Shown here: piece after piece, positions 3,068-46,026 of the stretch
How positions within the stretch are numbered: the first letter of the stretch is position 1
Layout of the letters: each line of letters starts with the position of its first letter
NCBI GenBank assembly: GCA_944358775.1
Contig: CALVRU010000004.1
Span: 1 to 59,664 of the forward strand
DNA length: 59,664 nucleotides
Direction of reading: 5' to 3'
Origin: an uncultured Bacilli bacterium
GTDB lineage: Bacteria > Bacillota_I > Bacilli_A > RF39 > UBA660
Notes under the pieces: generated by a model
Told to the model about the DNA's origin: nothing
The model's database searches: none
What the model saw: only the letters and a program-made list of their open reading frames with translations
Translations under genes and position numbers: made by a program

Positions 3068-4821
3068 ATGAAGAAAAAGGGAAAATGGAAAGTACAGTTT
3101 TTGGTTATGGCATTTTGTGTACTTGGACTAGTCGCTGTATTGGTAGGAAGTAGTTATGCCATTTTCTCGGATGTCAGTGATCAAGGAGATTATAATACGG
3201 TGACCGCGGGAACTCTTCAGTTGTCGTATAAGACACCCAGTCACTTAGTTTAAATAATTTATATCCGGTCTCGGATGTGGAAGGAATGACCGGAGAAGGG
3301 TATACCTTTACGGTTCGTAATATTGGAACACTACCAAGTGATTATAAAGTGATGATTCAAGATGATAGTGCGATGATCCAAGCGGATGGTTGTAGTGATC
3401 ATTTAATGCCGAAAGCAAATATTAAAATTAGTATTGATGGAGGAACTCCTTTTTTATTAAGTAGCATTGAAGGAAGTAATTATATGATTACGACGGGCAA
3501 CTTACAACCAGGGGAAAGTGTAACACATGTTGTCAGAGCCTGGATCGATGAAGCAAGTGGAAACGAAATATTAGGAACGCACTTTCACGGGAAAGTAGTA
3601 GTAGAAGGAGTGCAAGGAGAGTTTGTCTATCGTGATGAAAGTGGAGCGAATCCGCCGAAGTTAGTAGAAGGAATGATACCAGTTACATATAATGGAACGA
3701 ACTGGGTCAAAGCAGATGTATATAATGAATGGTACGATTATAATAATCAAGAGTGGGCGAATGCGGTGACGGTAACGGAGGAGAATCGGGCAACTTATAT
3801 GAGTGCTTCTGCAGGGACCGTAATACCAATGGACGATATCAATACAATGTGGGTCTGGCTACCAAGATATGAATATCAATATGCCAATTTAGGAACTCAA
3901 TATGCAGGTGGCACCCAGGATCTTCCAGGAGAAATCAAAATAAACTTCTTAAGTGGAATAAATACGACTCCAAGTGACGCTGCCAATTACAAAGTACATC
4001 CGGCTTTTACGTTTGGAAGTGAAGAATTAACCGGAATCTGGGTTGGCAAATTTGAAACAGGTGGAACTTTAGCAAGTGCTTGTACGAATGAAAGTTGTGA
4101 TATTTCAAATATAGTAATTAAACCAAATGTAAAAATTCTAAATTATCAGAATGTGAGCACATATTTTTATTCGGCTCGAAGTATGCAAATGAATAGTAGT
4201 AATCCATATGGATTTCGTAGTACTTCAGGAAATGTTCACATGAGCAAAAATAGTGAATGGAGTGCCATTGCCTATTTATCCCAAAGTAGATATGGGAAAT
4301 ATGGAAATTCCAAATATACTGGTGCTGACAAAGAAATCGCAATCAACAATTGTAGTAGTTTTATTACGGGAATTGGCGGTGACACGGTGAGTGCCGCGCC
4401 ATCGAGTACTTCTTGTACTACAAATACTTACACGACAGCGAAAGGACAAGCTGCCAGTACGACGGGAAATATTACGGGAATTTACGATATTTCTGGCGCA
4501 GGAGCAGAAACAGTAATGGGAAACTATAATAATCCAATTGGCTCATCCGGTTTTTCTACTATGCCAGAAACTCAATATTATGATCTTTATACCACGACGA
4601 ATTTATCGACGGCGTGTAATGGTGGAGTATGTTATGGGCATGCGTTGAGTGAAACTTCTACTTGGTACAAAGATGCTTCTGTTCTTATAAGTAGTTCAAA
4701 TCCGTGGATCATGCGGGGTGGGGGTGTGACTACGACAAGGCCTGGTACGGGAGCATTCTACATTTCTTATGACGCTGGACCTGGCATTGGCGTAAATTGC
4801 CGTATCATTGTAACGCCATAA
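3068..4821 (+). pseudogene. Frameshifted secreted surface protein: TasA/SipW-type leader, TasA-like domain and C-terminal CLec/DGR-target-like domain (ORFs 3068-3253 and 3277-4821 are one gene)
   Basis: ORF1 ends ...GSSYAIFSD...NTVTAGTLQLSY. The frame of ORF2 is open upstream as DTQSLSLNNLYPVSDVEG from 3232. One base is missing at 3230-3231 (tat aa gac); total 1754 nt = 585 codons minus 1. The C-terminus has PW..RGG...G.F...R. Confidence 0.75.
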
Positions 4822-4856
4822 TATAATATTTTTTAAGAGCGAAACGTCCAAAAATT

Positions 4857-4884
4857 GGAAAGGTGAAAAAAACTTTCCTTTTTT
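4857..4884 (+). terminator. Intrinsic terminator
   Basis: GGAAAG-loop-CTTTCC followed by a T-run. Confidence 0.6.
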
Positions 4885-4939
4885 GCTAGTTTATTATATA
4901 ATGAATAATAGATATTAGAAAATAGAAAGGCGGCTTAAA

Positions 4940-6181
4940 ATGAAAAAGGTTTATACTGGCATCGACATTGGTAGTCATAGTATTAAAATTGTCGTAAATG
5001 AAGTGATTCATCATAAATTTCATGTATTAGCTGCCACTTCTGTACCAACGAAGGGTGTAAAAAGAGGATTGATTCAAGACCCGGATGTTGTCGTGTCGTC
5101 TTTAAAAAAAGCCAAAGAAGAAATTGAAGGAATGTTAGGGGTTTCCATCGATCAAGCAATTGTAGCAATTCCGTCTTTTGATCTTCATCTGACAATAGTC
5201 GAAGGAAAGGTTGATTTACAAGACGATCCAATTACCTCAGAAGATATCAATCGAGCTCTTCAAGATGCCACGTTGGGTAGATTAGAAGAGCAAAGAGAAT
5301 TGGTTACTTTAATTCCGATTGCGTTTCATGTTGACGATAAGGAGGGTGTCAAAGATCCGCGGGGCTTAAGTGGTGATACGTTAGCCGTCAAAGCAGTGAT
5401 GGCAACAGTTCCGAAAGAGATTTTGACGATTCCATTTAGTATTTTAAGACAAGTCGGAATCGAGCCGATCGATATTGCTTTCTCGGAAACGGGTGATTAT
5501 TATGAAGCGAGAAATAAAAACATAGATAGCAAGATTGGGGCCGTTATTAATATTGGATATGAGACGATTAAAGTATCGGTGTTTAATAAAGGAATTATGA
5601 TCAAATCATCTACTTTAAACGGCGGTTCCAAACAAGTCGATCATGATATTCAATATATGTATCATGTCTCGAAAAAAAATGCTCGTTTCTTAAAAGAAAA
5701 TTTTGCGGTTAGCAATACCAGTTATGCAGATGTAAATGATATTATCGAAGTCGAAGATAAAGAAGGAAAAATCATTTCATTAAATCAACTAGAACTTTCC
5801 TCGGTCGTCGAAGCGCGGATCGTCGAAATTTTGAAGTTGGCAAAAAAAGAAATTAGCCTCTTAACAAACCGTGAAATTAGTTATATAATAGTTACAGGTG
5901 GAATAAGCGAATTAGCGGGATTTCAATATGTTTTAGACAATGTTTTGGGCCGGCTTGCGATAACCTTAAATATTACCTCGATGGGTATAAGAAACAATAA
6001 ATATTCGAGTGCTGCAGGACTTACTCGGTATTTTGATGAAAAACTATCGTTGCGAGGAAGAAATTATTCAATGTTAAGTGAACGAAAATCAGTTGAATTA
6101 GGAACTGTGAAAAGAAAAGAATCGAATGGGTCGATGGTTGGAAAGGTCTTTGGTTATCTCTTTGACCACAAGGAAAATTAA
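4940..6181 (+). CDS. ftsA: Cell division protein FtsA
   Basis: GIDIGS actin-like motif and VTGG; directly upstream of ftsZ. Confidence 0.95.
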
Positions 6182-6192
6182 GGAGGATTTGT

Positions 6193-7326
6193 ATGTTGGA
6201 TAACACACTAGAAATGGATCAATTAGCAAAGATAAAAGTAATCGGTGTCGGTGGCGGCGGCGGAAATGCTGTAAATCGAATGGTCGAATCAGGAATTCAA
6301 GGAGTCGAGTTCATTGTTGCTAATACAGATTTACAAGTATTAAATAATTCAAAAGCAGATGTAAAAATTCAAATCGGGGCATCTTTGACCGACGGATTAG
6401 GAGCTGGTGCAAAACCGGAAATCGGAAAAGAAGCGGCAGTTGAGAGCAAAAAAGAAATCGAAGATGCTTTAGCAGGTGCCGACATGGTTTTCCTTACTTG
6501 TGGAATGGGTGGTGGAACTGGTACGGGAGCTGCACCGGTTATTGCCGAAATTGCTCAGAACCTTGGTGCTTTGACGGTGGCAATTGTAACCAAGCCTTTC
6601 AGCTTTGAAGGAAAGAAAAGAATGGAAAACGCACTTGCTGGATTAGAAGAATTAAAGAAACATGTCGATACATTGATCGTCATTCCAAATGATCGACTAC
6701 GCGAAATTATCGATAAGACGACCCCGATGTTAGATGCATTTAAAGAAGTAGATAATGTATTGAGACGTGGTGTTCAATCGATTTCCGATTTAATTGCAAT
6801 TGTCGGACTTGTCAACCTTGACTTTGCCGATGTTAAAGCAGTCATGGAGAAATCTGGTAATGCCATTATCGGTATTGGTATTGGAATGGGTGAAGATCGG
6901 GCGATCGAAGCGGCCAAACAAGCAGTTACTTCACCACTTCTCGAAACGAGTATTCAAGGAGCAACCGATGCCATTATCAATATTACCGGTGGCGTTAATT
7001 TAACATTGTTTGAAGCAGAACAAGCAGCAGAAGTCGTAAGAGCAGCTGCGAATACAGATATCAATACGATCTTTGGTTCGGTAATCAATGAAAACTTAAC
7101 AGACGAAGTAATCGTAACCGTAATTGCTACGGGTTTTGATAAAAAGAAAGAAGTAAAAGAGCCTCTTTATAACAATGTTCAAAATACAAGACGAAGTGCT
7201 CCACGTGATATCGAAGTGATCGATACACCACAGCCTACGCCAATTCCAGTAATGAGCAGTGATGATGACGACGATGATGATGGAGACTATGATATCCCAT
7301 CATTCCTAAAGAAAAGAAATTATTAA
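6193..7326 (+). CDS. ftsZ: Cell division protein FtsZ
   Basis: [20 protein letters not shown] tubulin signature, DIPSFL C-terminal core. Confidence 0.99.
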
Positions 7327-7361
7327 TAGAACGATAATAATTCTGATTATTGTAAAAATCG

Positions 7362-7390
7362 AAAAGTCTTGGGAAAGACTTTTTTCTTTT
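7362..7390 (+). terminator. Intrinsic terminator after ftsZ
   Basis: AAAAGTCT-tgggaa-AGACTTTT plus T-run. Confidence 0.75.
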
Positions 7391-7432
7391 GAAAAATATG
7401 ATATAATGTTGATATAAGATCGAGGTGGAAAT

Positions 7433-9703
7433 ATGGCAAAAAAGAAAAAACGAAAAGAAACGAAAAAAACAGGATTCGATCATACAGAAGAAATTACAGG
7501 AATCGTTCTCATTATCTTAGCAATTTTGAGTATCGTTCCGAAACCATTTGGATTTGTGGGAGAGATTACGGCATCATTTGCAATGTTTTTGATTGGAACA
7601 GGATATCAAATCTTATTATTAGCAATGTTAATCTTAGGCGGATATCTCGTTTGGAAAAAAGAATGGCCTAATTTCTTTACGAATCGGTTAATTGGATTGT
7701 ATTGTGTATTGATGGGACTAATTGTTCTTGCACATATTAATTTTGTGACCGAAAATCAAGGGGATAGTTTAGTTGTTATCAAAGAAACGGTCAACAATTT
7801 GATGTCTAATTTTAATCATATTATGAAAGGAACACCGTTAACATTAAAAGGAGCCGGGATTATTGGTGCTGCCTTAAGTATCGTCTTTACCAAATTATTC
7901 GCGACAACGGGAACTTATATTGTTTCATCGGTCGTAATTGTTTTAGGAATTGTTCTTCTAACGGGCTTTGATTTGGTGGAATGGATAAAAAGCATATTTG
8001 CAAAAATTCCACGTCGTAAGAAAGAAAAAAGGGCAATTGTAGAATCGGATGACGAAGAAGAAGAAATCGAACCAGTAGTGATGGATGAGCCGACCGAAGA
8101 AAGAAAAAAATATACGATTTCTAGTATGAAAGAGTTAAACGATTTATATAAAGATGATTTGGAAGTGTTAGAAAAAACGAAAGAAATATCACTTGCCGAT
8201 ATGGAGCCGATCGAAAAAGAACAAGAAACAACGCCAGTTATTCGACATCCATATCAGTTGCCACCAATTTCACTTTTAGCTTTGCCAAAGAATAAGAAGA
8301 AACGAAATGATAGTAATATTGAAAAAAACGTATTGGCATTAGAAAAAGTACTACGGGATTTTGGGATTATTGGAAAAGTAGTCGCCGTTACGGAAGGTCC
8401 AGCAGTAACCCAGTACGAGTTAGAGTTAAATTCGGGAACAAAGGTCAACAAGTTACTTTCATTGAACAAAGAAATATCTCTTGCACTAGCGAAAAAAGAC
8501 GTTCGTATTGAAGCACCGATTCCAGGTAAAAGTACAGTCGGTATCGAATTACCAAATGAATCGGTCACGATGGTAGGACTACGAGAAATTTTACAAACCG
8601 TCCCGGCAAACAAAGAGAAAAGTAAGCTATTAGTAGCATTAGGTAAAAATATTATGGGATCTTCGGTGTGGTGTGAGATCGATAAAACTCCGCATTTGTT
8701 AGTAGCAGGTGCAACCGGTAGTGGTAAATCTGTTTGTATTAACTGTATTATTGCGTCTATTTTAATGAGAACGCGACCAGACGAAGTAAGATTGGTTTTA
8801 GTCGATCCAAAAAAAGTAGAGTTGAGCATGTATAATGGGATTCCCCATTTGCTGATGCCAGTCGTGACTGATCCGAAAAAAGCAAATGTTGCACTTCAAA
8901 AAATCGTCAGTGAAATGGAACATCGCTACGACTTGTTCAGTGAGAAGAATGTAAAAAATATTGCAACTTACAATGAATGGGTCGAAAAACAAAATGAGAA
9001 TTTACCGGACGATGCCAAAATTAGTAAGATGAGCTATATTGTTGTAATCGTCGATGAGTTGGCAGATTTGATGTTGGTAGCTAGTAAAGAAGTCGAAGAT
9101 TCGATTATGCGGATTACTCAGATGGCGCGAGCGGCCGGAATCCATTTAATTATTGCAACCCAACGACCATCGACAGATGTCATCACCGGTGTCGTCAAAG
9201 CAAACATTCCATCGCGGATTTCTTTTGCTGTTAGTAGTAGTATCGATTCTCGTACGATTCTTGACCAAACCGGTGCGGAAAAACTACTCGGGAAAGGTGA
9301 TATGTTATTCTTGCCGATGGGAGAAAACTCACCACTTCGTGTCCAAGGAGCATATGTTTCGGACGAAGAACTAGAACGATTAGTACAATATACGGTAAAT
9401 CAACAAAAGGCCCAATACGATGAGAAGTTCTTAAACTTAAGTGAATCGAGTCGTCCAGGCGTAGATGATGTCAAAGACCAAGAAGAAGAATATGATGATC
9501 CACTTTACAATGAAATTGTCGACTTTGTCGTGAATAGTGGAAAAGCAAGTGCTTCGCTATTGCAAAGACGATTCCGTTTGGGATACAATCGGGCCGCCCG
9601 TTGTATTGATTTACTAGAAGAACGTGGGATTGTTGGACCTGCCAATGGTAGTAAACCACGTGAAGTGTTAATTAAGAATGAAAATTCGGCAAAAGAAGAG
9701 TAA
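7433..9703 (+). CDS. ftsK: DNA translocase FtsK/SpoIIIE
   Basis: 4 N-terminal TMs, PHLLVAGATGSGKS, VDELADLM, TQRPS, C-terminal gamma domain (LQRRFRLGYNRAAR). Confidence 0.97.
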   Translation: MAKKKKRKETKKTGFDHTEEITGIVLIILAILSIVPKPFGFVGEITASFAMFLIGTGYQILLLAMLILGGYLVWKKEWPNFFTNRLIGLYCVLMGLIVLAHINFVTENQGDSLVVIKETVNNLMSNFNHIMKGTPLTLKGAGIIGAALSIVFTKLFATTGTYIVSSVVIVLGIVLLTGFDLVEWIKSIFAKIPRRKKEKRAIVESDDEEEEIEPVVMDEPTEERKKYTISSMKELNDLYKDDLEVLEKTKEISLADMEPIEKEQETTPVIRHPYQLPPISLLALPKNKKKRNDSNIEKNVLALEKVLRDFGIIGKVVAVTEGPAVTQYELELNSGTKVNKLLSLNKEISLALAKKDVRIEAPIPGKSTVGIELPNESVTMVGLREILQTVPANKEKSKLLVALGKNIMGSSVWCEIDKTPHLLVAGATGSGKSVCINCIIASILMRTRPDEVRLVLVDPKKVELSMYNGIPHLLMPVVTDPKKANVALQKIVSEMEHRYDLFSEKNVKNIATYNEWVEKQNENLPDDAKISKMSYIVVIVDELADLMLVASKEVEDSIMRITQMARAAGIHLIIATQRPSTDVITGVVKANIPSRISFAVSSSIDSRTILDQTGAEKLLGKGDMLFLPMGENSPLRVQGAYVSDEELERLVQYTVNQQKAQYDEKFLNLSESSRPGVDDVKDQEEEYDDPLYNEIVDFVVNSGKASASLLQRRFRLGYNRAARCIDLLEERGIVGPANGSKPREVLIKNENSAKEE

Positions 9704-9759
9704 TTCATATTGTCGAAACCAAAACAATTTTCTCATGATGAAAACAATGAATTTAAGAT

Positions 9760-9797
9760 AAAATAGAAAGAAAAGACGATTTCTTTCTATTTTTTTG
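9760..9797 (+). terminator. Intrinsic terminator after ftsK
   Basis: AAAATAGAAAGAAA-agacga-TTTCTTTCTATTTT perfect 14-bp inverted repeat plus T-run. Confidence 0.8.
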
Positions 9798-9801
9798 GTA
9801 A

Positions 9802-10290: not shown

Positions 10291-10400
10291 TAGATATGAT
10301 ATTAGGAAATAATAAGAATGAAAGAGAACTAAGAAAAATCGGAAAATAATGTGTAGAAACCTGATCTTTGCTCATAATATTTATAGAAATGAGGGATATT

Positions 10401-19682: not shown

Positions 19683-21088
19683 TGCCAAAACGTAGTTTAC
19701 GAGAAGAATTTGAACTCGATCAAGAGAAACGAGATCCGATCAAAATTATCTCTGATTATGATATTTTTAAAGATAAAGCATTATTAGATAAATTACGGTC
19801 GAACATTATTCAAAACATCATCGACAATAAAGTGCCGGAAGAGAAACTACTAACCGAATACATTAATGAAGAAATCGACAAGACTTTGGAAGGATACGAT
19901 CTTACTAATTTAGAACGTAGTCACATTTTTAATTTGATTGATAATGAAATCAACGGATACGGTCCTATTACAGAGCTATTAGATGATAAAAATGTGACCG
20001 AAATCATGGTCAATGGACCAGAAGAGATTTACATTGAAATTGATGGTCACGTAATGAAAGATGATACCGTATCTTTTATCAATGCCGATCATATTTTAAG
20101 AACGATCCAAAGAATGGTTCAACCATTAGGCCGAACGATCGATCAAGCAAATCCGATGGTCGATTCGAGATTGCCGGATGGTTCCAGAATTAATGCGATT
20201 ATTCCGCCGCTCAGTTTAAATGGACCAGTACTTACGATCCGGAAATTTAAGGATAGTATGAACGATATTGAGTCATTGATTCGAAATGGTACGTTGACGC
20301 CTTATATGGCCCGTTTTTTAGAGGCATGTGTTCATGCCAAATTAAATATGATTGTCTGTGGTGGTACCGGTAGTGGTAAAACGACACTTTTGAATATTCT
20401 GTCTAGTTTTATCGGTGAAGATGAGCGTATTATTACGATTGAAGATGCTGCCGAATTACGTTTGCATCAAAAACACGTCATCACTTTGGAAACACGGAAT
20501 ATGAATTATGAAAGTGGTGGCGAAGTGACGATTCGAGATCTTGTCATCAACTCATTGCGAATGCGACCAGACCGGATCATCGTCGGCGAAGTCCGTGGCA
20601 AAGAGGCATTCGATATGCTACAGGCAATGAATACAGGACATGAAGGAAGCTTAACAACCCTTCATGCGAACAGTCCGATCGATGCTCTAAACCGTTTGGA
20701 AACAATGGTTTTAATGAGTGGATTAGAAATTCCGATCCGTGCGATTCGGGAATATATAGAAAATGCCATCGATATTGTCGTAAATATCGAACGATTGGGC
20801 GACGGTCGTAGAAAAGTAACGAGCATTTGTGAAGTGATCGGCTTTCAAGGAGATGCCATTCGTTTAAAGGAAATCTTTGCTTTTAAAGAACACGGCTTAA
20901 CTTCGACCGGGGAAGTAAATGGCGAGTTCATATTATATAATTATATTCCAGAAAGTTATAAGAAGATGAAAGCCAAAGGAGTAAATTCGGTTGACGATAT
21001 TTTCGATGAAGTGAAAAAAATATTAGACAAAAAAGCAAAATTAGAAGAAAAGAAAAAGAAAGCAAAACCGGTCAAAGAAAAGAAATAG
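19682..21088 (+). CDS. cpaF: Tad pilus assembly ATPase CpaF/TadA
   Basis: [47 protein letters not shown]. Confidence 0.95.
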
Positions 21089-21106
21089 AAAGAGGGTGAA
21101 GCGAAT

Positions 21107-22117
21107 ATGCCAGAAGGATACAATATTTCTTTGTTTATCTTGCAAATTATCATTATTTTTATCCTATTTGCCATTATGATATGGCTTTTAAAACTAGTAC
21201 GGGCAATTCGCTATGAAAAACGAATTAGTAAATACACGATTGATTCGATTAAAGAAGATTCTCTTTCTTTTTTCGATCGGGTAAATATCGCTTATTTTGA
21301 GATTTGTCATAGATTATCAAAGGCTTTGAAAAAAATTCGAATTTTTGATACGTACAGTAAAAAGTATGAGAAATATATCGATGGTTCGAAACAGATTCGG
21401 GAAGAAGCGATGGATTATATTTCAACCAAAATTCTATGTGGTATTTTAGTATTTTTGATTGTATTGGTATCCGATGTCCTTCAATATAAACCGATCTCGT
21501 TGATTCAAGTGATCTATTCCTTATTGATTGGTTTTTTCTTACCAGACTTATTCTTGATTTCTCGTAACCAATTCCGAAAGAGACAAATTGAAAACGATTT
21601 ATTAAAATCGATTATTATCATGAATAACGCATTTAAATCGGGTCGCAGTACGATGCAGGCAATTCAAATTGTATCGGAGGAACTCGACGGACCATTAGCG
21701 GGTGAATTCAAAAAAATGTATATCGACTTGACTTATGGTCTCAGCTTGGAAACGGTATTCACGCGGTTTGCAAAGCGAGTAAATATCGAAGAAGTGAAGT
21801 ATATTACAACCTCTTTGACGATTTTAAATAAAACAGGCGGCGATATTGTAAAAGTGTTTTCGTCGATTGAACGATCTTTCTTCAATCGGCGCAAGTTACA
21901 ACAAGAGTTGAAATCTTTGACGGCTTCCGCTCGGCTTATTTTTAATATTTTGGTAGTATTACCGTTTGTTTTATTTTTGATGATCTTTATCTTAAATCCA
22001 ACCTATTTTAATCCGTTATTTACAACGCCGATTGGGCTTGTCATCTTACTTGTTATCGTCTTATTGTATACGACATATATTTTTATCATCCGACGGATTA
22101 TGAAAGTCGAAGAGTAA
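21107..22117 (+). CDS. tadB: TadB-like platform protein (T2SS F domain)
   Basis: NAFKSG...GPLAGEF...GGDIV pattern, C-terminal TMs. Confidence 0.85.
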   Translation: MPEGYNISLFILQIIIIFILFAIMIWLLKLVRAIRYEKRISKYTIDSIKEDSLSFFDRVNIAYFEICHRLSKALKKIRIFDTYSKKYEKYIDGSKQIREEAMDYISTKILCGILVFLIVLVSDVLQYKPISLIQVIYSLLIGFFLPDLFLISRNQFRKRQIENDLLKSIIIMNNAFKSGRSTMQAIQIVSEELDGPLAGEFKKMYIDLTYGLSLETVFTRFAKRVNIEEVKYITTSLTILNKTGGDIVKVFSSIERSFFNRRKLQQELKSLTASARLIFNILVVLPFVLFLMIFILNPTYFNPLFTTPIGLVILLVIVLLYTTYIFIIRRIMKVEE

Positions 22118-22129
22118 AGGGGGATATGC

Positions 22130-22837
22130 ATGGCTAAGAAAAAAATAGAAGTATCGCGAAAAATTTATAGTCAAAAGAGTATCGATAAGATGCAAGCAAG
22201 AATCGATTTGCTCGGTTATCGGGAAAGTTATAGTGCGATTATTTTCTTAAATATTCGTCTTCTTTCTTCCACTTTTCTCTTTTTTATGATATTATATCTA
22301 TTCGAATGGGGATATGTTTTAGCACCTTTAATTACGTTTCTTTATTATATTTTTCTACCTAAGATTGCGATTGACCAAAAGGTGGCCAAAAGAGGATCGC
22401 GGCTAGATAAAGAAGCAATGTATTTTTTCGAAGTATTAACGTTATCGTTAGAGTCGGGAAGAAATTTACAAAGTGCTTTAGAAGTAACAGCTTCGAATAT
22501 CGATTCGGAATTATCGAGTGAATTTAAACAAACCTTAGAAGAAGTTCGTTTTGGTAAAAGTCTCAACGAAGCATTGGATGATTTAAAAAGACGAATTCCT
22601 TCCGATACAATTAACAATATTATTTTAAATATTTCCCAGTCGAATATTTTTGGTAATAGTATTATTGATACGTTATATAATCAAATCGATTATATTCGAG
22701 ATAAAAAAGTGATGGAAACACGGGCGAAGATGAGCAAAATACCGATTCAGATCAGTGTGGTATCGGTTATCTTCTTTATTCCAATTTTGTTATTGTTAAT
22801 TTTATCGCCAGTAATCATCAGTTATATTGTAGGATAG
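22130..22837 (+). CDS. tadC: TadC-like platform protein (T2SS F domain)
   Basis: LSLESGRNL...EVRFGKSL...FG pattern, C-terminal TM. Confidence 0.85.
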   Translation: MAKKKIEVSRKIYSQKSIDKMQARIDLLGYRESYSAIIFLNIRLLSSTFLFFMILYLFEWGYVLAPLITFLYYIFLPKIAIDQKVAKRGSRLDKEAMYFFEVLTLSLESGRNLQSALEVTASNIDSELSSEFKQTLEEVRFGKSLNEALDDLKRRIPSDTINNIILNISQSNIFGNSIIDTLYNQIDYIRDKKVMETRAKMSKIPIQISVVSVIFFIPILLLLILSPVIISYIVG

Positions 22838-24860: not shown

Positions 24861-26099
24861 ATGGATCGTCAAATAGAACAGAATACTCCGTTTGATCAAT
24901 TAATTTCTCAGCTTGAAACGCTCGGAATTAGTAGCAAAGTTCTAGGCCAAGAGCAAGATAAATTACAGTTAAAAATTCCTTTCGAAAGCAAGAATATGAT
25001 TTATGCCGTGATCGATTTTATAAACCGAATTCCTAGAGCGAATTTTCTTTTTGAAAAAAAAGCTGAAAGCTTTTATTTGACTATGAAAACGCCAGTAATC
25101 GATCTAGATTCTTTTGTTGAGAAAATCAAAGATTACAATCCGAATCATGATTATTGGAATGAATTGTCGATCGACATGAAAGAGATTATGACTCTGTTTG
25201 AACAAGCAAACTTACAAAATGCAAATTTACAAATAGGAGTTAAAATAGGGGAGCAAGAAAAAGAGTATCGGATTCATAGTGATGATCTACAGATGATAAG
25301 AGCCTTGCAAGCACTCGGTATTCCAGAGACAGATCAATTGTTTCACTTTGTATCGAACCATCCCGAAGAAGCTGCTGCCATTTTAAAAGGCGGAGAATTA
25401 AAAGGGACCGAATTAAGTCAAGAAGCAAGAGAAGTACTTGGAATTCACGAGAATAAAGAGGCTGCGGAATTAACTAAAGAAAACTCACTTGTTACCACTT
25501 ATCGGAAGGAAATTCCTGGTCTTGATGGGGCGTATGCCTGGATTCACATTATTACTCCATTTGAGAAAGTAGGAAATTCAGATATAGAAGTACCGACATC
25601 AGATCGTTTTATTGAACTAGCTTTAGAATTTAATGAAAATGGCAAAAAACAAATAAACAGCACGCGTTTTCATTACCAAAATGGTGTAATATTTGATCGC
25701 GATATTTTACCACAGATCGCCGATGAGTATCGTTTGGCTAGTAAAATGGAAGGAAATCATATTGAACAAAGTACCGAGAATCCATCCTCTTATATTATTA
25801 CAGATGAGAACGGCAAACAGTCAGAATACCTGGATGCGGATAATCAAATTCGTTCTACCGAAGCAATCGGCAACTTTATTCATGAGACTGATTTTGGAAA
25901 AAAAGAAGGAGTTCAAAAACAAGAAAAGGAACAGAAATTTGATAAAGAAAATGAGAAAGTATTAGTGAAAGTAAATCAAGTACAGACGACTGGTTCGGTT
26001 GCTGATACTACAGCGGGAAAAGCGAGTTCGATTATTTTAGGAATTATGATAGTCGTTGTAATTGTTTTATTGATTGTAATTTTTGCAATGTTGATGTAG
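24861..26099 (+). CDS. Hypothetical membrane-anchored protein
   Basis: 412 aa, acidic, single C-terminal TM, SD GAGGTG; no recognisable domain. Confidence 0.8.
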   Translation: MDRQIEQNTPFDQLISQLETLGISSKVLGQEQDKLQLKIPFESKNMIYAVIDFINRIPRANFLFEKKAESFYLTMKTPVIDLDSFVEKIKDYNPNHDYWNELSIDMKEIMTLFEQANLQNANLQIGVKIGEQEKEYRIHSDDLQMIRALQALGIPETDQLFHFVSNHPEEAAAILKGGELKGTELSQEAREVLGIHENKEAAELTKENSLVTTYRKEIPGLDGAYAWIHIITPFEKVGNSDIEVPTSDRFIELALEFNENGKKQINSTRFHYQNGVIFDRDILPQIADEYRLASKMEGNHIEQSTENPSSYIITDENGKQSEYLDADNQIRSTEAIGNFIHETDFGKKEGVQKQEKEQKFDKENEKVLVKVNQVQTTGSVADTTAGKASSIILGIMIVVVIVLLIVIFAMLM

Positions 26100-26516: not shown

Positions 26517-26537
26517 CGTTGTAAATTAGCCGAAAAT

Positions 26538-26987
26538 TTGGGAGTTTACGATATGTCTGCTGGAGCAGGTGAATATGTGATGGGGGTACTTGCTGATTCA
26601 AGCGGAGCACCAAGAAGTGGGAATAGCGACTCAAGGAATTCTGGATTCAATGGAACGTTAGAAAATGGAAGTAAATATAGTTCAGGAATTGCTTTTCCAG
26701 AAGCCAAGTATTATGATTTATATACTTCAATGAACCAAAGCTCCAATGATGATAGTTTAAGCGCTACGGCATGCAGTGGAGGAATTTGTTATGGACATGG
26801 GTTAAGTGAGACTGCAGGATGGTATCAAGATTATTCCGTTTTTGTTAGTCAAACTATGCCTTGGGTTCTCCGCGGCGGTGGCTGTTCTAGTAGCCCGCCG
26901 ATTGCTGGCATCTTCTACGCCGGCCACAACTACGGTTACACGGACAGCAACGTCGCGTCTCGTGCTGTGTTGGTCCCAGGAGCGTAG
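26538..26987 (+). pseudogene. Orphan C-terminal cassette of a CLec/DGR-target-like surface protein, paralogous to the 3' end of 3277-4821
   Basis: Shares G(I/V)YD(I/M)S, E.VMG, PE..YYDLYT, TAC.GG.CYGH.LSET..WY.D and PW..RGGG with the upstream gene. No leader; similarity begins abruptly at ~26538. Confidence 0.75.
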
Positions 26988-26990: not shown

Positions 26991-27082
26991 TTTATTTCAT
27001 TTCATCAAAGTGATGGAAATAATATTATGATAAGAGGGAACTGATCAATTGTAATTGTGCTGTAATGCAAAATAGAAAAAAG

Positions 27083-27121
27083 AAAAGAGGAATTTCGGAA
27101 AAGATAAGAAATTCTTCTTTT
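27083..27121 (+). terminator. Intrinsic terminator
   Basis: AAAAGAGGAATTTC-loop-GAAATTCTTCTTTT. Confidence 0.7.
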
Positions 27122-27189
27122 GTTTTGAAGAAATTGCGATTTGTAAAAGAATTCTAGTTTTGTTAAAGTGCTTCCTGGAGGTGATTTGG

Positions 27190-28092
27190 TTGAGCCAAGT
27201 CGAAGTAGAAGAAGTACTTACGAAAATTAAAAAGAAGGAAGCCGTCATTCCTGGAACATGGGATCCTGTCTTTAAAACGATTTTAATGGAGTGTCCGAAC
27301 TATCTATCGGATATTATTTATCAAGTCACGAAGATACCGAAAGAATATATTGAAGCAAATCTCGTCTTTAAAAATACTGAGTATCCGATTGATTCGTTTG
27401 ATGAAAAGAAACGAATCAGTGATGTTGTCGTCGAAATAAAGGAAAACCATATTATTTTAGAAATGAATGCGCATTACTATGAAGGACTGATGGATAAAAA
27501 TTTGTCTTATGTCGAGAAATTAAGTAGTATAACGATGAAAATAGGAGCAGAATATCCACGCCGAGAGAAGATCATCGAAATCAATTTTGATGTCGAACGA
27601 AATCGATCATTTCCAGAAAGTGAGAAGACTATCTATGAGTTTGGACTCTATGAGAAAGAAGAACACTTTTTATACAGTGAACATATTACGATCTATCATA
27701 TCGATCTAGAAAAAATCAGGAAGAAGTATTATAATAAAGACAAAGAGATAGATCGGTTTGAGAAAGAGATGCTGTTACTAATGGAGACAGATAAAGAAGT
27801 ATTAAGCGAACTATCGAAAGGAGATGAGACGATGGAAGAAGCGAAGAGGAAGCTAGAGGACTTATCGAATGGAGAGTTATTTACGGAATACGAAAGAGAA
27901 CAAATGAAGGAAGCGGAAGAGCGAGCGATCAAGCGATACGAATTAAAGATGGCACGAGAAGAAGGAAAAGAAGAAGGACTGGAACAAGGGAAATTAGAGA
28001 CAGCGAAGAAGATGAAAGAACAAGGGATCGATTGGAATATCATCGCTGTTTGTACGGACTTATCTCTGAAGGAAATCGAAGAGATCAAATAA
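27190..28092 (+). CDS. Rpn/PD-(D/E)XK nuclease family protein ('PD-(D/E)XK transposase')
   Basis: D.VFK, SDVVVE...ILEMN nuclease core, REEGKEEGLEQGK repeat, TAKKM...IAVCTDLS tail. TTG 27190 follows GGAGGTG. Confidence 0.88.
   Translation: MSQVEVEEVLTKIKKKEAVIPGTWDPVFKTILMECPNYLSDIIYQVTKIPKEYIEANLVFKNTEYPIDSFDEKKRISDVVVEIKENHIILEMNAHYYEGLMDKNLSYVEKLSSITMKIGAEYPRREKIIEINFDVERNRSFPESEKTIYEFGLYEKEEHFLYSEHITIYHIDLEKIRKKYYNKDKEIDRFEKEMLLLMETDKEVLSELSKGDETMEEAKRKLEDLSNGELFTEYEREQMKEAEERAIKRYELKMAREEGKEEGLEQGKLETAKKMKEQGIDWNIIAVCTDLSLKEIEEIK
27832..28092 (+). CDS. Putative in-frame small C-terminal product (RpnS-type antitoxin, 86 aa)
   Basis: Internal SD AAAGGAG at 27817-27823, 8 nt before in-frame ATG 27832 (MEEAKRKL...). 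Confidence 0.55.
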   Translation: MEEAKRKLEDLSNGELFTEYEREQMKEAEERAIKRYELKMAREEGKEEGLEQGKLETAKKMKEQGIDWNIIAVCTDLSLKEIEEIK

Positions 28093-34230: not shown

Positions 34231-34231
34231 T

Positions 34232-35104: not shown

Positions 35105-35126
35105 ATTGTTCTTTTTTTGGTATTTC

Positions 35127-35155
35127 TTGACAAAACGCCTATTTTGCGATATAAA
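35127..35155 (+). promoter_or_regulatory. SigA promoter of ppaC
   Basis: TTGACA-17 nt-TATAAA. Confidence 0.7.
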
Positions 35156-35189
35156 TTTAAAGTACATTTGAAAAGGCAGTGAGAGATAT

Positions 35190-36812: not shown

Positions 36813-36890
36813 GACTTAACTTTTCTTGTAAAGTCCTTTTTTTTGTGATAATCTCTATATTAGAAAACTAATATACGGAGGTATCTATTA

Positions 36891-39560: not shown

Positions 39561-39572
39561 GGTTCCTTTTTT
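39544..39572 (+). terminator. Intrinsic terminator overlapping the ATPase stop codon
   Basis: AAAAAAAGGAA-tgtaagg-TTCCTTTTTTT. Confidence 0.65.
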
Positions 39573-39660
39573 TGTCAACCGTAAAAAAATAGAAAGAATA
39601 CTATTTATTAACAAAACATAATTTGTTATAATGAATTAGTCTAACGGGAGGATCTGTGAT

Positions 39661-40497: not shown

Positions 40498-40498
40498 T

Positions 40499-41317: not shown

Positions 41318-41329
41318 GGAAGTGATAAT

Positions 41330-42076
41330 ATGGGTCTTATCTTGACATTAGTCCTTGGTCTGTTCATCATTTTAGGAGCAGGAATTGTTTTTTTAACAAA
41401 GAATAATCAGAAATTTATCCAGTTTTCGATCAGTTTAGCATTCAGCGTCATGGTTATGCTTATTTTGGTAGATTTATTACCAGAAGCTTGGGAATGTCTC
41501 GGACAAGAACAAACCATGTGGTCGACGATTTTGATTTTAGGAATCTGTATCGTGGTAGGTTTTGTCATTTTATTAGGACTCGATCAATTTATTCCCGATC
41601 ATGAAGAGAAAAAAGGAAAACAAGAAGAACAAAATCATATGAAACATATCGGTCTTGTATCGAGTATTGCCTTGGTGATTCATAATTTGATGGAAGGAAT
41701 GGCGATTAGTTTGCTAGTGACGAATGACTTACGGGCCGGCTTATTAGCGGGAATTGGCGTAGGTCTTCATAACATTCCACTTGGTATGGTAATTGCTTCA
41801 ACCTTCTACGAGAGCAATCATAGTATCAAAAAAACAATGTGGATTATCCTTGGTATTTCTCTTTCTACTTTTGTAGGGGGAATGTTTCCCTTCTTATTCG
41901 AGACGAAAATCCCAGAAATAATCGAAGGAATTTTCTTTGGTATTACGATCGGTATGCTTCTTTATATCGTCATTATGGAGTTATTACCACAAGTACTACA
42001 TACGAAAGAGAAGAAAGTGACTTGGACGGGAATTGCTCTAGGAGTTGTTTTATTACTATTGACATTATTTTTGTAA
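41330..42076 (+). CDS. ZIP family metal transporter
   Basis: HNLMEG and HNIPLG motifs (the second Glu is replaced by Leu), 8 TMs. Confidence 0.88.
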   Translation: MGLILTLVLGLFIILGAGIVFLTKNNQKFIQFSISLAFSVMVMLILVDLLPEAWECLGQEQTMWSTILILGICIVVGFVILLGLDQFIPDHEEKKGKQEEQNHMKHIGLVSSIALVIHNLMEGMAISLLVTNDLRAGLLAGIGVGLHNIPLGMVIASTFYESNHSIKKTMWIILGISLSTFVGGMFPFLFETKIPEIIEGIFFGITIGMLLYIVIMELLPQVLHTKEKKVTWTGIALGVVLLLLTLFL

Positions 42077-42189
42077 AAGAAGAGTCTTCTTCTTTTTTTG
42101 TTTGCTAGTTGCATACAAAAAGGGTTGTTTCAATCAAAAGTTATGCTATAATGAGTTTAAGTAGGGCGTATCATAATTTGGGAGGAAAA

Positions 42190-42636
42190 ATGAAATATTT
42201 AAAAATAACAATGGTGTTATTCGTCATGGCGTTATGTCTGGGGACGATCGGCGTGGATGCCACGCAATATACGCAGCTGACGGATGTCAAGATTTCAGCT
42301 TTCGGAGGAGTATTTGTCAGTGAGCAAGTAGATAAGGGTGATGATAATTTTTATACACAAAAGGTAAAGAAAACAGCAGCTCGTGATGATTGGAGTGGTG
42401 ATGGTCGAGCGATCGAAGGGAGTATTCGTGGTTATTTTGCAGGACATTTTGAACCGACAGGTTGGCAAAATCTCCCTTTAAACAGTATTGTCGATTTTGG
42501 TGATACGACGAAGACACACGGAGCTTATCAACTTCAACTAAAATCGACCAAATGGTTGCCGACAACAGCCACAGCTTCCTTCGACTGGGATCTAGGAACG
42601 ATTGATTATAGCCCATATCCGGTTGTCGGTTGGTAA
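42190..42636 (+). CDS. Secreted hypothetical protein heading an ABC module
   Basis: ATG 42190 after GGGAGG; Sec-type leader ending VDA; TGcTATAAT promoter at 42144-42152. Confidence 0.8.
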   Translation: MKYLKITMVLFVMALCLGTIGVDATQYTQLTDVKISAFGGVFVSEQVDKGDDNFYTQKVKKTAARDDWSGDGRAIEGSIRGYFAGHFEPTGWQNLPLNSIVDFGDTTKTHGAYQLQLKSTKWLPTTATASFDWDLGTIDYSPYPVVGW

Positions 42637-42649
42637 AAAAACAAATAGC

Positions 42650-42681
42650 AGTAAAAGTGTAGTAAAATTGTAGTACAAAAG
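42650..42681 (+). repeat. Three tandem ~11-bp direct repeats
   Basis: AGTAAAAGTGT / AGTAAAATTGT / AGTACAAAAG. Confidence 0.6.
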
Positions 42682-42717
42682 ATACGTCCTACCAAATAAA
42701 TAAAAAAGGAGTAATCT

Positions 42718-43671
42718 ATGTGGAAAACAATCAAATTACATAAATTTTTCATACTTGCTATCATCATCGTTTTATGCTTAATTGGGCATTCGTTTTTTTC
42801 TTATTTTAATGAATACTATTATGAACCAGCGAAAGGATATCATCGAATTAAAGAGATTTGTTATGAACAGCAAGACTGGGATCATCCGTACTGTGAGAAT
42901 TTTGCACACAACAAAGATCATTTAGAAGAATGGTTGGAAAGTCATGATCCCAGTAAAGAGTTTGAGCAATTAGATGTAATTACTCTTACTAGTATTATTG
43001 TCGAACATTATTCTTTTGCAAGTTTACAATATTTTTCACCATTAATTATTGCGATTGCCGTAGCGGGTATGTTTCATTCCCATTTGAAAAGTGGTATGTT
43101 TGAAAATTATCTATTACGAATGGACTATAAAAAGTATTTGCGAAAAATATATCGCATATCGCTAAAAGCTTCCTTAATTATGCCGGTTGCTTTAATTGTT
43201 ATTTTTTTGATTTCTTGTCTGATTACTGGTTTTAATTTTGATACAAGTTCGGTCAATTCAAACATGAGTGTCTATTCTGCGTGGAAGTATGAACATTTCT
43301 TCTTATACGGAGCAATGATATGTCTGATTCAAGTTTTTATGAGTTTGGTATATGCCAATATAACATTATATTGTTGTCGAAAAAACAAGAATTTATTAGT
43401 GGCGATCGTTATGTCGTATATCTTCTTTTTAGTGCTAGATCTATTTGTTTATCTTGTATTATATTCTTTGATTTTAAATCGAATCTTCGGTATCAAAGAA
43501 TTAACGGATTATTTTAACATTGCTGGATATTGGTTTTTTAAAGAAGACAGTAATGGTACGATTCCTCTTATCGTAGCATTTTCATTACAATTAGTCTCAT
43601 TTTTGGGACTTCACCAAATCTTCAAACGGAAGGAACGGCTGGTTTTAGAGTATGAAAAACAAGTATCGTAA
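42718..43671 (+). CDS. ABC-type permease-like membrane protein
   Basis: N-terminal TM, extracellular loop, ~5-6 further TMs; operon with an ATPase. Confidence 0.7.
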   Translation: MWKTIKLHKFFILAIIIVLCLIGHSFFSYFNEYYYEPAKGYHRIKEICYEQQDWDHPYCENFAHNKDHLEEWLESHDPSKEFEQLDVITLTSIIVEHYSFASLQYFSPLIIAIAVAGMFHSHLKSGMFENYLLRMDYKKYLRKIYRISLKASLIMPVALIVIFLISCLITGFNFDTSSVNSNMSVYSAWKYEHFFLYGAMICLIQVFMSLVYANITLYCCRKNKNLLVAIVMSYIFFLVLDLFVYLVLYSLILNRIFGIKELTDYFNIAGYWFFKEDSNGTIPLIVAFSLQLVSFLGLHQIFKRKERLVLEYEKQVS

Positions 43672-44404
43672 TGAATGGAAAATGATCCAATATATTCTTT
43701 CGACAGAACGCTATAAATTCATATTTATTTTATCAATTCTGTTATCCTTGTATGGTGGCTTTGTTTTAGGAGTACCAAGAGAAAATTTTATTGATTCGCT
43801 TTTGAAGCCGTTCACGTTCTATTTCTTTAGCATTTTCTTTTTTGCCCTTGCATTCATCAATAATATGAATGTATGTGCAATTTTAAAAGAAGATTTTCCA
43901 TATTATGTTTTACGCTTAAAAACAAAAAAGGAATACGTCAAAATGGTGATTCGCTTATCGATTATGCTATTTTTCATTTGTTTCATCGTAGTGCTCGCAT
44001 TCTTGCTCATGTGTCTGTTTTTAACAACTTTTCATAATATCGAAATTAGTCCTTATAAGACGTATTCCATTACGAACTTATCTTACTGCCTTTTTCACTT
44101 TCTTCGTTATTTTCTCTATGGAATGCTATTAATCGTTATTTCGTCTTTACTTTATATCAATACCAATACGAAGATTGTAATTGGATATGCAGCACTTATA
44201 TTAGCTTTCATCTTTGTGAATAATGTGAGTATCTCTTTCGTGAATATTGCGCCTTATTTTGCAACAAGCTATTTTTCACAAGTCAATTTTTCTTCTTTTT
44301 CAATCGAAGTGATATGGTCTCTTGGCGTTTTAATTGCTCTCGAAGTAATCGTTCTTCTTCTTTATCGAATTACAATAAAAAATAAAAGGATTGAGGTATT
44401 ATGA
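43652..44404 (+). CDS. ABC-type permease-like membrane protein
   Basis: ~6 TMs; overlaps its neighbours. Confidence 0.7.
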   Translation: MKNKYRNEWKMIQYILSTERYKFIFILSILLSLYGGFVLGVPRENFIDSLLKPFTFYFFSIFFFALAFINNMNVCAILKEDFPYYVLRLKTKKEYVKMVIRLSIMLFFICFIVVLAFLLMCLFLTTFHNIEISPYKTYSITNLSYCLFHFLRYFLYGMLLIVISSLLYINTNTKIVIGYAALILAFIFVNNVSISFVNIAPYFATSYFSQVNFSSFSIEVIWSLGVLIALEVIVLLLYRITIKNKRIEVL

Positions 44405-45084
44405 AGTATATTCTATACAAAGATTTTTCTTATTTCATTCATAACCGTAAGTTTATTTTATTTCTCATTTGGCTCGTCCCCCTTTTAACCGTATTCCTTT
44501 ACTTACCAAGTAATACTACGACACTATATGTATTACAAGTAGGTTTAGGATCTATATTGGAAATACAATTTGAAAATATATTATTATTACTGATGTACTT
44601 ATTCAACGTTTTTAGTTTTATTTATTTTATCATTGAACTTTTTAGCAATGATTTCGATGAATATTTAGAAAATATCTTTTTACGAATCGATGCGACAACC
44701 TATCTTCGAAAGAAAACACTGTCTTTTCTCATTCTATATTTTGGTGTAAAAATAATTCAGTATGCGTTTCTATTAACGTTCGAATTCGTTCTTACTAGTT
44801 CCGGTAGTCTAGATTGGAATATCTTACTACTATTTGTCAGTGATTTCATCTATATTTTATTTTTACAGACGATAGTCTTACTTGTTTACTTCGTATATTT
44901 ATTAAGCAAGAAAAAAATGTCTCTCTTGGTTGTCTTAGCTCTCTTACTAGGCGTGTTGATTCCTAAAAATGTATGGAATCTACGTCATGATCTAATCGTT
45001 CTCAGTTTAATTGTTTTATTGATATATAGTGTCATCTATTTGTTGTTTCGCAAAAATGTAAAATGCTTAATGGAAAATGTATAG
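44401..45084 (+). CDS. ABC-type permease-like membrane protein
   Basis: ~6 TMs; 4-nt overlap with the previous gene. Confidence 0.7.
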   Translation: MKYILYKDFSYFIHNRKFILFLIWLVPLLTVFLYLPSNTTTLYVLQVGLGSILEIQFENILLLLMYLFNVFSFIYFIIELFSNDFDEYLENIFLRIDATTYLRKKTLSFLILYFGVKIIQYAFLLTFEFVLTSSGSLDWNILLLFVSDFIYILFLQTIVLLVYFVYLLSKKKMSLLVVLALLLGVLIPKNVWNLRHDLIVLSLIVLLIYSVIYLLFRKNVKCLMENV

Positions 45085-45093
45085 GAGGATTTT

Positions 45094-45735
45094 ATGAAAT
45101 TAGAAATAAAAAATTTAGAGAAAAAGTTTGGCAAAAACACGATTCTCAAAGATGTTAATTTGACTTTTACCGACGGCAAAATCTATGGCTTCGTCGGCCG
45201 TAATGGTTCTGGAAAAAGTGTTTTTTTAAAACTGATCTGTGGTTTTTATACACCGACCAGTGGCGAGATTTTATTGGATGGAGTAAACTATACTCTTTCC
45301 AATGCATTTCCAGAAAATACGCGGGCTTTAATTGAAAAACCAAAATTTTTACCAGATTTAACGGGATATGAAAATTTAGAGTTATTAGCATCTCTGCAAA
45401 ATAAAATCGGTCAAAAAGAAATCGAAGAAACATTGAAAAAATTAAATCTTTTCGAAGAAAAAGATAAAAAATATAGTAAATATTCGTTAGGCATGAAACA
45501 GAAACTGGGAATTGCGCAAGTGCTAATGGAAGATCCCCAATTGATGATTTTTGATGAACCTTTTAATGGCGTGGAAAATGAGACAGCAGCGAACATTCGC
45601 GAGTTGTTATTGCAAGAAAAAAAGAAGAAAAAGATCATCTTGATTGCTTCGCATATCAAAGAAGATATCACTTCTTTAGCGGATGTAGTATACGAGTTTG
45701 ATGGAGGAAAAATCCAAGAAATTACGAAAAAATAG
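45094..45735 (+). CDS. ABC transporter ATP-binding protein
   Basis: GRNGSGKS, YSLGMKQK, DEPFNG, ASH. Confidence 0.95.
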   Translation: MKLEIKNLEKKFGKNTILKDVNLTFTDGKIYGFVGRNGSGKSVFLKLICGFYTPTSGEILLDGVNYTLSNAFPENTRALIEKPKFLPDLTGYENLELLASLQNKIGQKEIEETLKKLNLFEEKDKKYSKYSLGMKQKLGIAQVLMEDPQLMIFDEPFNGVENETAANIRELLLQEKKKKKIILIASHIKEDITSLADVVYEFDGGKIQEITKK

Positions 45736-45767
45736 ATCGATAATTGAAATATAGAAATAGAAACAAT

Positions 45768-45800
45768 AAGGTAAATTTACGAATTTACCTTTTTCTTTTT
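45768..45800 (+). terminator. Intrinsic terminator after the ABC module
   Basis: AAGGTAAATT-tacg-AATTTACCTT plus T-run. Confidence 0.8.
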
Positions 45801-45842
45801 GGCTTTTTATAAAATAATTGGTATAATAAAAATAGTGATCCT

Positions 45843-46026
45843 ATGAAAGAAAAAAAGAAATGAATACAAATACTTTTTTCATGGCAGGCGAGTACTTATT
45901 TTAGAAGTAGCTTTGTTAATTTTGATGTTAGTCGTTGTGACTAGTACGACTTATGCAATCTATATGGTGGAGTTGCAAGGGAAAGAGAAAAAGAATATCT
46001 TTGCTTTTTATTTTGAACTTTTGTGA
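45843..46026 (+). pseudogene. Orphan, frameshifted N-terminal leader stub of a surface protein
   Basis: TG-g-TATAAT at 45819-45827. Removing one A from A7 (45850-45856) gives MKEKRNEYKYFFHGRRVLILEVALLILMLVVVTSTTYA/IYMVELQGKEKKN, which then runs into the next promoter. Confidence 0.5.

Follow-up and report, generated by a model that had tools for sequence, protein, structure and literature searches.

Three degraded members of one protein family

The window analysed here, a 59,664-nt stretch of low-GC chromosomal DNA from an uncultured Bacilli bacterium (contig CALVRU010000004.1), has the gene content of a Firmicute, including a division and cell wall (dcw) cluster (murG, murB, divIB, ftsA and ftsZ), a Tad/Flp pilus operon and addAB, among others. 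Its forward strand carries three dispersed loci of a single family of predicted surface proteins: gene 1 (3068-4821), a fragment holding the C-terminal tip (26538-26987) and a leader-only stub (45844-46026). The first-pass annotation had assigned all three to one family and had described none of them as intact. Both statements hold: the tip matches gene 1 with an E-value of 1e-27, the stub matches a profile of family leaders with an E-value of 4.8e-6, and the copies are frameshifted, truncated at the 5' end and reduced to a leader, respectively. We consider it probable that the three loci are inactivated relics of a multicopy family of secreted surface proteins, which serves as a target of diversity-generating retroelements (DGRs) in related lineages and whose variable regions (VRs) are frozen here.

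Gene 1 lies between divIB (2296-2982) and ftsA (4940-6181) and is split by frame into a leader open reading frame (ORF; 3068-3253, 61 codons) and a body ORF (3277-4821, 514 codons). The split results from a 1-nt deletion: relative to the intact allele P0168 of the same species, which reads ...LQLSYEDTQSLSL... at this site, the window has one G fewer at 3229/3230, in codon 55, which turns TATGAAGAC into TATAAGAC and leads to a premature stop. The deletion site is outside any homopolymer tract. Once repaired, the gene has 584 codons and a 584-aa product, with intact counterparts in 584-aa homologues at 81% identity and in P0168. Frameshifted products recur on several independent contigs, and the identical 61-aa product is found on six contigs (P0156, P0163). 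The 5' part (3068-3253) encodes a K-rich start, a hydrophobic segment, the sequence GSSYA followed by IFSD, and the first strands of the N-terminal domain. The remainder of a predicted beta-sandwich N-module (3232-3651, with AF2 strands at residues 6-110) ends in a DESGAN linker (3634-3651). It is followed by a body of ~390 aa with a predicted lectin (FGE-sulfatase-like) fold (3652-4821), the end of which (4711-4807) is homologous to the VRs described below.

The tip fragment represents the C-terminal 149 codons of a paralogue resembling P0031 (from L002 and L003), its closest full-length relative, to which it is 80% identical. It aligns to residues 401-514 of gene 1 with 38% identity, sharing the motifs GxYDxS, CYGHxLSET and PWxxRGG. 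Stop codons occupy all frames upstream of it, and both the leader and the first half of the lectin fold are missing; the part that remains is the second half of one fold, and therefore the ORF at 26538 cannot form the fold alone. The same truncated ORF recurs at one position in at least 21 contigs and is listed in 31 blocks of the sequence collection; a 104-aa membrane ORF precedes it, a PDDEXK_2 gene follows it, and the Tad operon lies further upstream. It represents the fixed remnant of a pseudogene. Fixed and decayed copies across strains are what the first-pass annotation had named beforehand as speaking against its proposal, and the tip, with a single VR in at least 21 contigs, is such a copy.

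The stub begins with an ATG at 45844 that opens a short frame (MKEKKK, then a stop) out of phase with the hydrophobic segment; the break is located inside an A-run, after which the sequence continues as ...RRVLILEVALLILMLVVVTSTTYAIYMVELQGKEKKNI... and is cut off after ~60 codons, before the next gene (46051). To the six-frame translation of the window we applied a profile built from 46 family leaders, with gene-1-like leaders excluded. The gene 1 leader ranked first (E 2.9e-21) and the stub frame fragment at 45847-46023 second (22.8 bits), with the next best match at an E-value of 0.07. Upstream of the stub, a promoter-like site on the forward strand (45799-45827) matches the consensus with TTGGCT, a 17-nt spacer and a TG-extended -10 element (TG-TATAAT); such sites show no enrichment over shuffled sequences in the stub region.

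Architecture and fold of the family

The repaired 584-aa protein has 5271 relatives, and no named protein is among them. An intact member consists of a signal or anchor sequence of the form hydrophobic-(S/T)(Y/F)A-x(F/Y), an exchangeable beta-sandwich N-module of ~170 aa and a body of ~390 aa. The body begins after a conserved linker, DESGAN-P-LV-GMIPV, and is predicted to adopt an FGE-sulfatase/C-type-lectin fold, its last ~35 residues forming the putative ligand-binding variable region. Among 52 members compared with Pfam, 13 match PF12389 (camelysin/TasA) at E<=0.01, with a best E-value of 1.1e-5, and 9 match PF03781 (FGE-sulfatase), as does the target gene of the related locus L060.

The AF2 model of the 511-aa ORF of the window has a pLDDT of 91.3 and a pTM of 0.79. 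When it was compared with the PDB by Foldseek, the sole significant matches were three chains of TaqVP (5vf4), with E-values from 2.4e-9 to 8.6e-9. Because the model is confident and TaqVP is the only significant structural match, we conclude that the gene 1 product from about residue 195 to the end is modelled as a single DGR-type lectin fold. The model, the structural matches and PF03781 agree on the C-terminal lectin/FGE-sulfatase fold characteristic of DGR variable proteins, as the first-pass annotation had predicted for this domain. A PDB search by sequence gave nothing significant (top match 6nav, E 0.69). A phage origin of the family was rejected, as the gene 1 body, searched by tblastn, had no match among 50,697 phage genomes.

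The N-terminal part is less clearly classified. The gene 1 leader scores 16.3 bits against TIGR04088 (cut-off 19) and 17.6 against PF12389 (cut-off 22.5), both below the cut-off, and 6 of the 52 members match TIGR04088 at E<=0.1. It may be a SipW-like leader or an ordinary Sec signal sequence; for the family, an ordinary Sec signal or an uncleaved signal anchor appears equally possible as the SipW type. The presence of a sipW gene, proposed earlier as a check, found no support: a crude motif scan for the S26-peptidase motif SxSMxP recovered no ORF in the window or in 100 fetched related loci, and the listed neighbour genes of family loci include no Pfam match to Peptidase_S24 or S26. Modelled separately, the N-domain of gene 1 reaches a pLDDT of 66, with residues 26-70 disordered, and this low-confidence model matches generic beta-sandwiches at E>=8e-3, TasA not among them; a TasA fold for the N-domain would be a tentative assignment at most. 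With the full model, the TasA-like bundling pilus of Pyrobaculum (7ueg) comes up as a weak match (E 0.029). For the family as a whole, dependence on SipW and assembly into TasA-type fibres stand as unproven proposals.

DGR cassettes adjoin family members in related lineages

Scanning the tip alignment against IMG/VR and the JGI metagenome collection yielded 82 loci. A reverse transcriptase (RT) with the DGR motifs PIGNY(T/S)SQYFANI ... R(Y/F)MDD is present in six of them: it adjoins family members in L015, L016, L060, L061 and L066, and is located ~9 kb away in L079. In L060, L061, L062 and L066, a repeat of 142-145 nt of the 3' end of the target lies just downstream of the gene, in the manner of a template repeat (TR). 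TR and VR differ by 21-28 mismatches in these loci, 81-86% of which fall on adenines of the downstream copy, and this copy carries runs of AAC codons. The cassettes of L060 and L066 share the order target, TR, MutS_I-domain gene, bAvd and RT, with Pfam E-values of 4.5e-9 for MutS_I, 1.5e-20 for bAvd and 1.5e-17 for RVT_1. The small MutS domain I protein between TR and avd is encoded at 10890-11285 in L060 and at 10885-11253 in L066, in a gut Firmicute host.

The targets of these cassettes (697 aa in L060 and 689 aa in L066) share the leader class of the family (MDKKKKVMGVLFTLTIIFTIIGSTFAYLSW...) as well as its GMIPV...WANA...VWIPRY segment and lectin tip, and the gene 1 body, with P0168 as the query protein, is 45% identical to the L066 target over 315 aa. 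Four strains with the cassette (L060, L062, L066 and L042, which are the same or related loci from different samples) have four different VRs. Since full cassettes adjoin family members and 81-86% of the mismatches between TR and VR are located on TR adenines, the sequences indicate that the family is a DGR target in related lineages, diversified by adenine-specific mutagenic retrohoming. The organism of L060 is fairly distant from that of the window, their Obg proteins being 61% identical. An RT is within reach in 4 of the 41 metagenome loci having at least 3 kb of downstream sequence.

Additional TR-like copies are found in L015, L016, L026 and L042. On the 3.8-kb contig of L042, adenines account for most of the differences (84-96% of mismatches) that separate the repeats at 1937-2081 and 2258-2402 from the TRs of L060 and L062; the repeat located where a TR would be looks as if it had itself been mutagenised, or as if it were a second VR.

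Variable regions are frozen in the window lineage

The last ~100 nt of the tip fragment have a GC content of 0.55-0.59 vs ~0.3 in the flanks, with 16% A and 32% C vs 34% A and 15% C in the window. Where the tip has this A-poor, GC-rich patch (26868-26984, forward strand), its putative former VR, the homologues in L060, L062 and L066 have their proven VRs. The patch is bounded by the A-free anchors CTCCGCGGCGGTG and GCGTCTCGTGCTGTGTTGG, which are identical in P0031. Mismatches between the tip and P0031 fall on codon positions 1 and 2 in 16 of 20 cases within the VR, compared with 20 of 52 upstream (Fisher p = 0.003); mismatches are not significantly denser in the VR than upstream of it (p = 0.21). 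The composition and the codon-position bias suggest a real but old DGR signature.

The tip VR does not vary in the sampled population. The 16 protein variants in the 90% cluster of the tip have the VR CSSSPPIAG(I/V)FYAGHNYGYTDSNVASRAVLVPGA in common, with few and scattered differences, and the DNA of the fragment is identical across six independent contigs. Two variants, P0123 and P0124, have suffered an additional frameshift or a VR deletion. The DGR signature of the tip had been called fresh, a view that finds no support in a VR that is invariant in all strains sampled and a fragment that is fixed. An origin of the fragment as an ectopic cDNA insertion was ruled out, as it reaches ~320 nt upstream of the region that TRs cover in relatives.

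For gene 1, we observe two tip/VR alleles in the population sampled, on roughly 13 or more contigs. The alleles differ at 15 of 97 nt, and their flanks are ~99% identical. The window type is shared by P0157, P0166, P0159, P0161 and P0169, and the second type is found in P0168, P0019 and P0020. The VRs of the window copies are thus frozen in the present population: neither the tip, with the same VR in 16 variants, nor gene 1, with two alleles, is hypervariable.

No RT-like ORF was found in the 59.7-kb window or within 10 kb of the same-species loci L007-L014. Ungapped scans of the window with both VRs and a general repeat search detected no second copy that could serve as a TR, the best ungapped match covering 55 of 136 positions, and no TR for the tip VR was found in any fetched locus. 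The DGR link proposed in the first-pass annotation therefore holds for the relatives, with their TR, MutS-like, Avd and RT components and adenine-specific mismatches, and does not extend to the window, which has neither RT nor TR; a pair of TR and VR is found for the homologues in L060, L061, L062 and L066, and for none of the window copies.

The inactivating mutations extend beyond the window. The metagenome-assembled genome (MAG) GCA_964312905.1 contains both the tip fragment (L009) and a paralogue at the HisKA-valS locus interrupted by a nonsense codon (W262stop, L098), and another strain has G76stop and an internal deletion at that locus (L100). We considered whether 261-aa and 75-aa forms of the protein represent disruptions of gene 1; contig comparison places both in the HisKA-valS paralogue. 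Phase variation was ruled out, these being true nonsense mutations rather than slippage in repeat tracts, and the gene 1 frameshift not lying in a homopolymer. Collectively, these copies show that the family is decaying in the lineage of the window.

Modules are exchanged between paralogues and alleles

Comparison of orthologous loci across strains, which had been suggested as a way of detecting swapped tips, did reveal swapped modules at both the dcw and the HisKA-valS loci. At the dcw locus, L013 has an intact gene 1 allele, and L014 has P0019, in which an unrelated leader and N-module are joined to the body at DESGAN: from position 4095, the body of P0019 and the window share 98-100% identity, and the allele is unrelated upstream of ~3615. 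Mapped on gene 1, the homology to L097 (94% nucleotide identity) ends at 3651, and the homology to L002 begins at 3643. At the HisKA-valS locus, L001 has two intact paralogues in tandem, L097 has one chimeric 388-aa gene in which a different short tip follows an N-module 94% DNA-identical to window positions 3067-3651, and the copies in L098 and L100 are disrupted. Proteins with bodies that are ~70% identical have N-modules at 85-96% identity, and P0025 and P0026 are 44% different overall with only 4 differing residues in the tip. These mosaics show, at the level of sequence comparison, that recombination at the DESGAN linker shuffles N-modules and tips between paralogues and alleles.

A comparison with silent-cassette systems of the pilE/pilS kind reveals that partial copies exist and that the dcw and HisKA-valS alleles are mosaic, with junctions at DESGAN. 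Among the alleles compared, none was found to be an expressed allele carrying sequence of the tip fragment or the stub. The two-tier scheme of variation put forward in the first-pass annotation is borne out in part: the exchange of modules at DESGAN among alleles and paralogues is supported, and the retrohoming tier is not seen at work here, where VRs are frozen and the window has no RT or TR.

Genomic setting of the loci

A surface-protein gene (2983-4940) separates divIB from ftsA in a dcw cluster that is conserved in other respects. L013 and L014 show this placement too, and family members on other contigs are located elsewhere. A complete Tad/Flp-type pilus operon (17896-22837; 1321-6286 in L007-L012) is located just upstream of the tip-fragment neighbourhood and comprises genes for the Flp pilin, a TadE-like protein, a CpaE/ParA-like ATPase, a TadA/T2SSE ATPase and two T2SSF proteins. 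On the 5' side of the tip fragment, every same-species contig retains a 412-aa ORF (24861-26099) that lacks a Pfam match and ends in a hydrophobic C-terminal anchor. Elsewhere in the window, three type IV pilin-like genes stand in tandem (54398-56181), with the prepilin N-terminus KGFTL(I/V)ELLAVIVILG; the second and third arose by recent duplication (300-nt repeat D1, 82% identical).

Directly 3' of the tip fragment is a PDDEXK_2 (Rpn/transposase_31-like) gene (27160-28092; 10638-11860 in L008). In L008, synteny is lost right after this gene, with hisS and aspS replacing addB and addA, and a cluster of single-nucleotide polymorphisms is located between the tip fragment and the PDDEXK_2 gene (27043-27151). 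The region looks like a rearrangement hotspot, and the truncated state of the tip may be connected with it.

In the related locus L004, an 824-aa gene (12265-14739) adjoins family member P0007, has no recorded Pfam match and ends in a similar ...SRAVLV tip; it is probably a further, longer member of the family. The possibility that L004 carries a VR of the TR lineage of the tip was ruled out by alignment.

Weighing the explanations

The probable reading, that the window holds inactivated former DGR targets, would proceed as follows. Intact members would be secreted proteins encoded in multiple copies in low-GC gut Firmicutes, with a presumed function in adhesion or ligand recognition by a variable lectin head on a stalk that is N-terminally anchored or polymerised. 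In related lineages, a DGR placed directly downstream (TR, MutS-like gene, Avd and RT) rewrites the variable region. In the lineage of the window, the copy at the dcw locus has decayed by a 1-nt deletion, the P0031-like copy to its last 149 codons and the third copy to its leader, with a further paralogue in the same MAG stopped by a nonsense codon. The A-poor, GC-rich patch and the concentration of differences at codon positions 1 and 2 would be the footprint of past DGR activity. Writing into the window copies would have stopped some time ago, either through loss of the retroelement or as the copies ceased to be targets.

Several observations weigh against this reading. The TRs recovered from relatives do not match the window VRs, and therefore a DGR origin of the latter would rest on position homology, composition and codon-position bias rather than on a TR/VR pair. 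Anchor scans of IMG/VR, with a two-anchor pattern and with a 19-mer anchor, gave no matches, and the 19-mer anchor found two chance matches in GTDB representative genomes (a Noviherbaspirillum MAG and a Lentisphaeria MAG) and no TR. The negative results for RT and TR cover the window and the fetched loci, and an RT or TR may lie elsewhere in this genome. The differences between the two gene 1 alleles include third-position changes and changes that are not compatible with adenine mutagenesis; because the implied TR would carry A at third codon positions, which is unusual, gene conversion may be at least as likely as retrohoming to account for them. Finally, the gene at the dcw locus is intact in some strains (P0168, P0019 and P0020), and therefore the family is not wholly dead in the species.

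The same allele differences lend some weight to the view that no DGR ever acted on the copies of this lineage, in which case the tip differences would reflect diversifying selection and gene conversion, and the GC-rich patch would have been acquired horizontally or by conversion. Gene 1 alleles do show synonymous third-position changes and an atypical implied TR, tips have been moved by recombination, as in P0025 and P0026, and the mismatch density of the tip VR does not exceed that upstream. The patch, however, is located exactly at the position of proven VRs in homologues and is flanked by invariant A-free stretches; its depletion in adenine is as expected after adenine mutagenesis, and its mismatches concentrate at the first two codon positions. 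For these reasons, we find it unlikely that the copies were never DGR targets.

A DGR acting in trans from elsewhere in the genome might still retrohome into dispersed tips, including the truncated one, with stubs and cassettes as working parts of a two-tier system. Remote targets are known for non-phage DGRs (PMC5758913), approximately 90% of family loci with enough flanking sequence have no adjoining RT, which would fit targets in trans, modules are clearly exchanged between genes, and the tip VR retains GC-rich, A-free anchors like those at the 3' end of proven VRs. Continuing retrohoming is nonetheless difficult to reconcile with a tip VR that all 16 protein variants share and that six independent contigs carry with identical DNA, or with two gene 1 VR alleles across roughly 13 or more contigs when four strains of cassette-bearing relatives have four VRs. 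Moreover, the window copies are broken by ordinary point mutations and not by switchable tracts, and no TR turned up in the window or, for the tip VR, in any fetched locus. We regard an active trans-acting system as quite improbable.

A more elaborate proposal, that intact members are TasA-like, SipW-processed subunits polymerising into fibres by donor-strand exchange, bearing lectin heads diversified by a DGR in trans, with the tip and the stub as a recombination reservoir, seems to us very improbable. The idea that errors of assembly or sequencing produced the fragments from intact genes is refuted: near-identical repeated modules in the family can break assemblies and some short cluster members may be partial at contig ends, but many assemblies, made independently from different samples, have the same frameshift, truncated tip and flanks on long contigs, and the nonsense codons of L098 and L100 are inside long contigs.

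Relation to known systems and significance

DGRs, their lectin-fold targets and the existence of remote and multiple targets are already well described. The family resembles TvpA of Treponema denticola and its remote paralogues in ending with an FGE-sulfatase-like lectin fold, the extreme C-terminus of which is the VR, and in being a multicopy family scattered round the chromosome in a cellular rather than phage context. Unlike TvpA, which is a lipoprotein, the family has an N-terminus with a SipW-like signal and a swappable beta-sandwich module; the window has no RT or TR and its VRs are static. One cassette can serve several targets in the TvpA system (PMC5758913), as it may do in this family. 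Among PDB structures, the gene 1 body comes closest to TaqVP of Thermus aquaticus (5vf4; E 2.4e-9, probability 1.0, ~450 aligned columns), but the two share 13% sequence identity, with a TM-score of 0.34-0.45 and different N-terminal parts.

The accessory set of MSL (MutS-like) and Avd has been described for 16 DGRs, including that of Legionella, and non-phage DGRs may have remote targets, with one cassette serving several of them (Wu et al. 2018, PMC5758913). The cassettes of L060 and L066, with target, TR, MutS_I gene, bAvd and RT, are of this Legionella type. In contrast to the Legionella target, the DUF1566-type lipoprotein LdtA, the target of the family is FGE-sulfatase-like, and the window contains none of the cassette genes.

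Similarity to Bacillus TasA/CalY (Peptidase_M73) is seen in the leader, where a hydrophobic segment precedes (S/T)(Y/F)A-x-F-(S/T)-D, in the weak matches to PF12389 and TIGR04088, and in the beta-sandwich that follows. Unlike TasA/CalY, the gene 1 leader is below curated cut-offs, no S26 motif or tapA neighbour was seen, and the N-domain model lacks a TasA match; the family, whose fibre formation is hypothetical, also carries an appended 390-aa lectin-fold domain, which TasA lacks. In the literature searched, we found no paper linking DGRs with TasA, SipW or camelysin, and the main text of two large DGR surveys (PMC5758913, PMC8144416) mentions no N-terminal part of the TasA, camelysin or M73 type. 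Because the papers searched and the main text of the surveys mention no such link, the combination of a SipW-like leader, a swappable beta-sandwich and a DGR lectin head may be an undescribed architecture. If the fibre and trans-DGR proposal were true, gut Firmicutes would possess a two-tier variation of adhesins by retrohoming and module shuffling.

The family is large (over 5000 proteins) and unnamed, occurs in low-GC gut Firmicutes and has no Pfam model covering the whole protein. As to annotation, the loci of the window should be labelled pseudogenes or fragments rather than a working variation system. They would provide a natural example, within one species, of what becomes of DGR targets after diversification ends: a frozen A-poor VR, truncations, frameshifts and nonsense codons.

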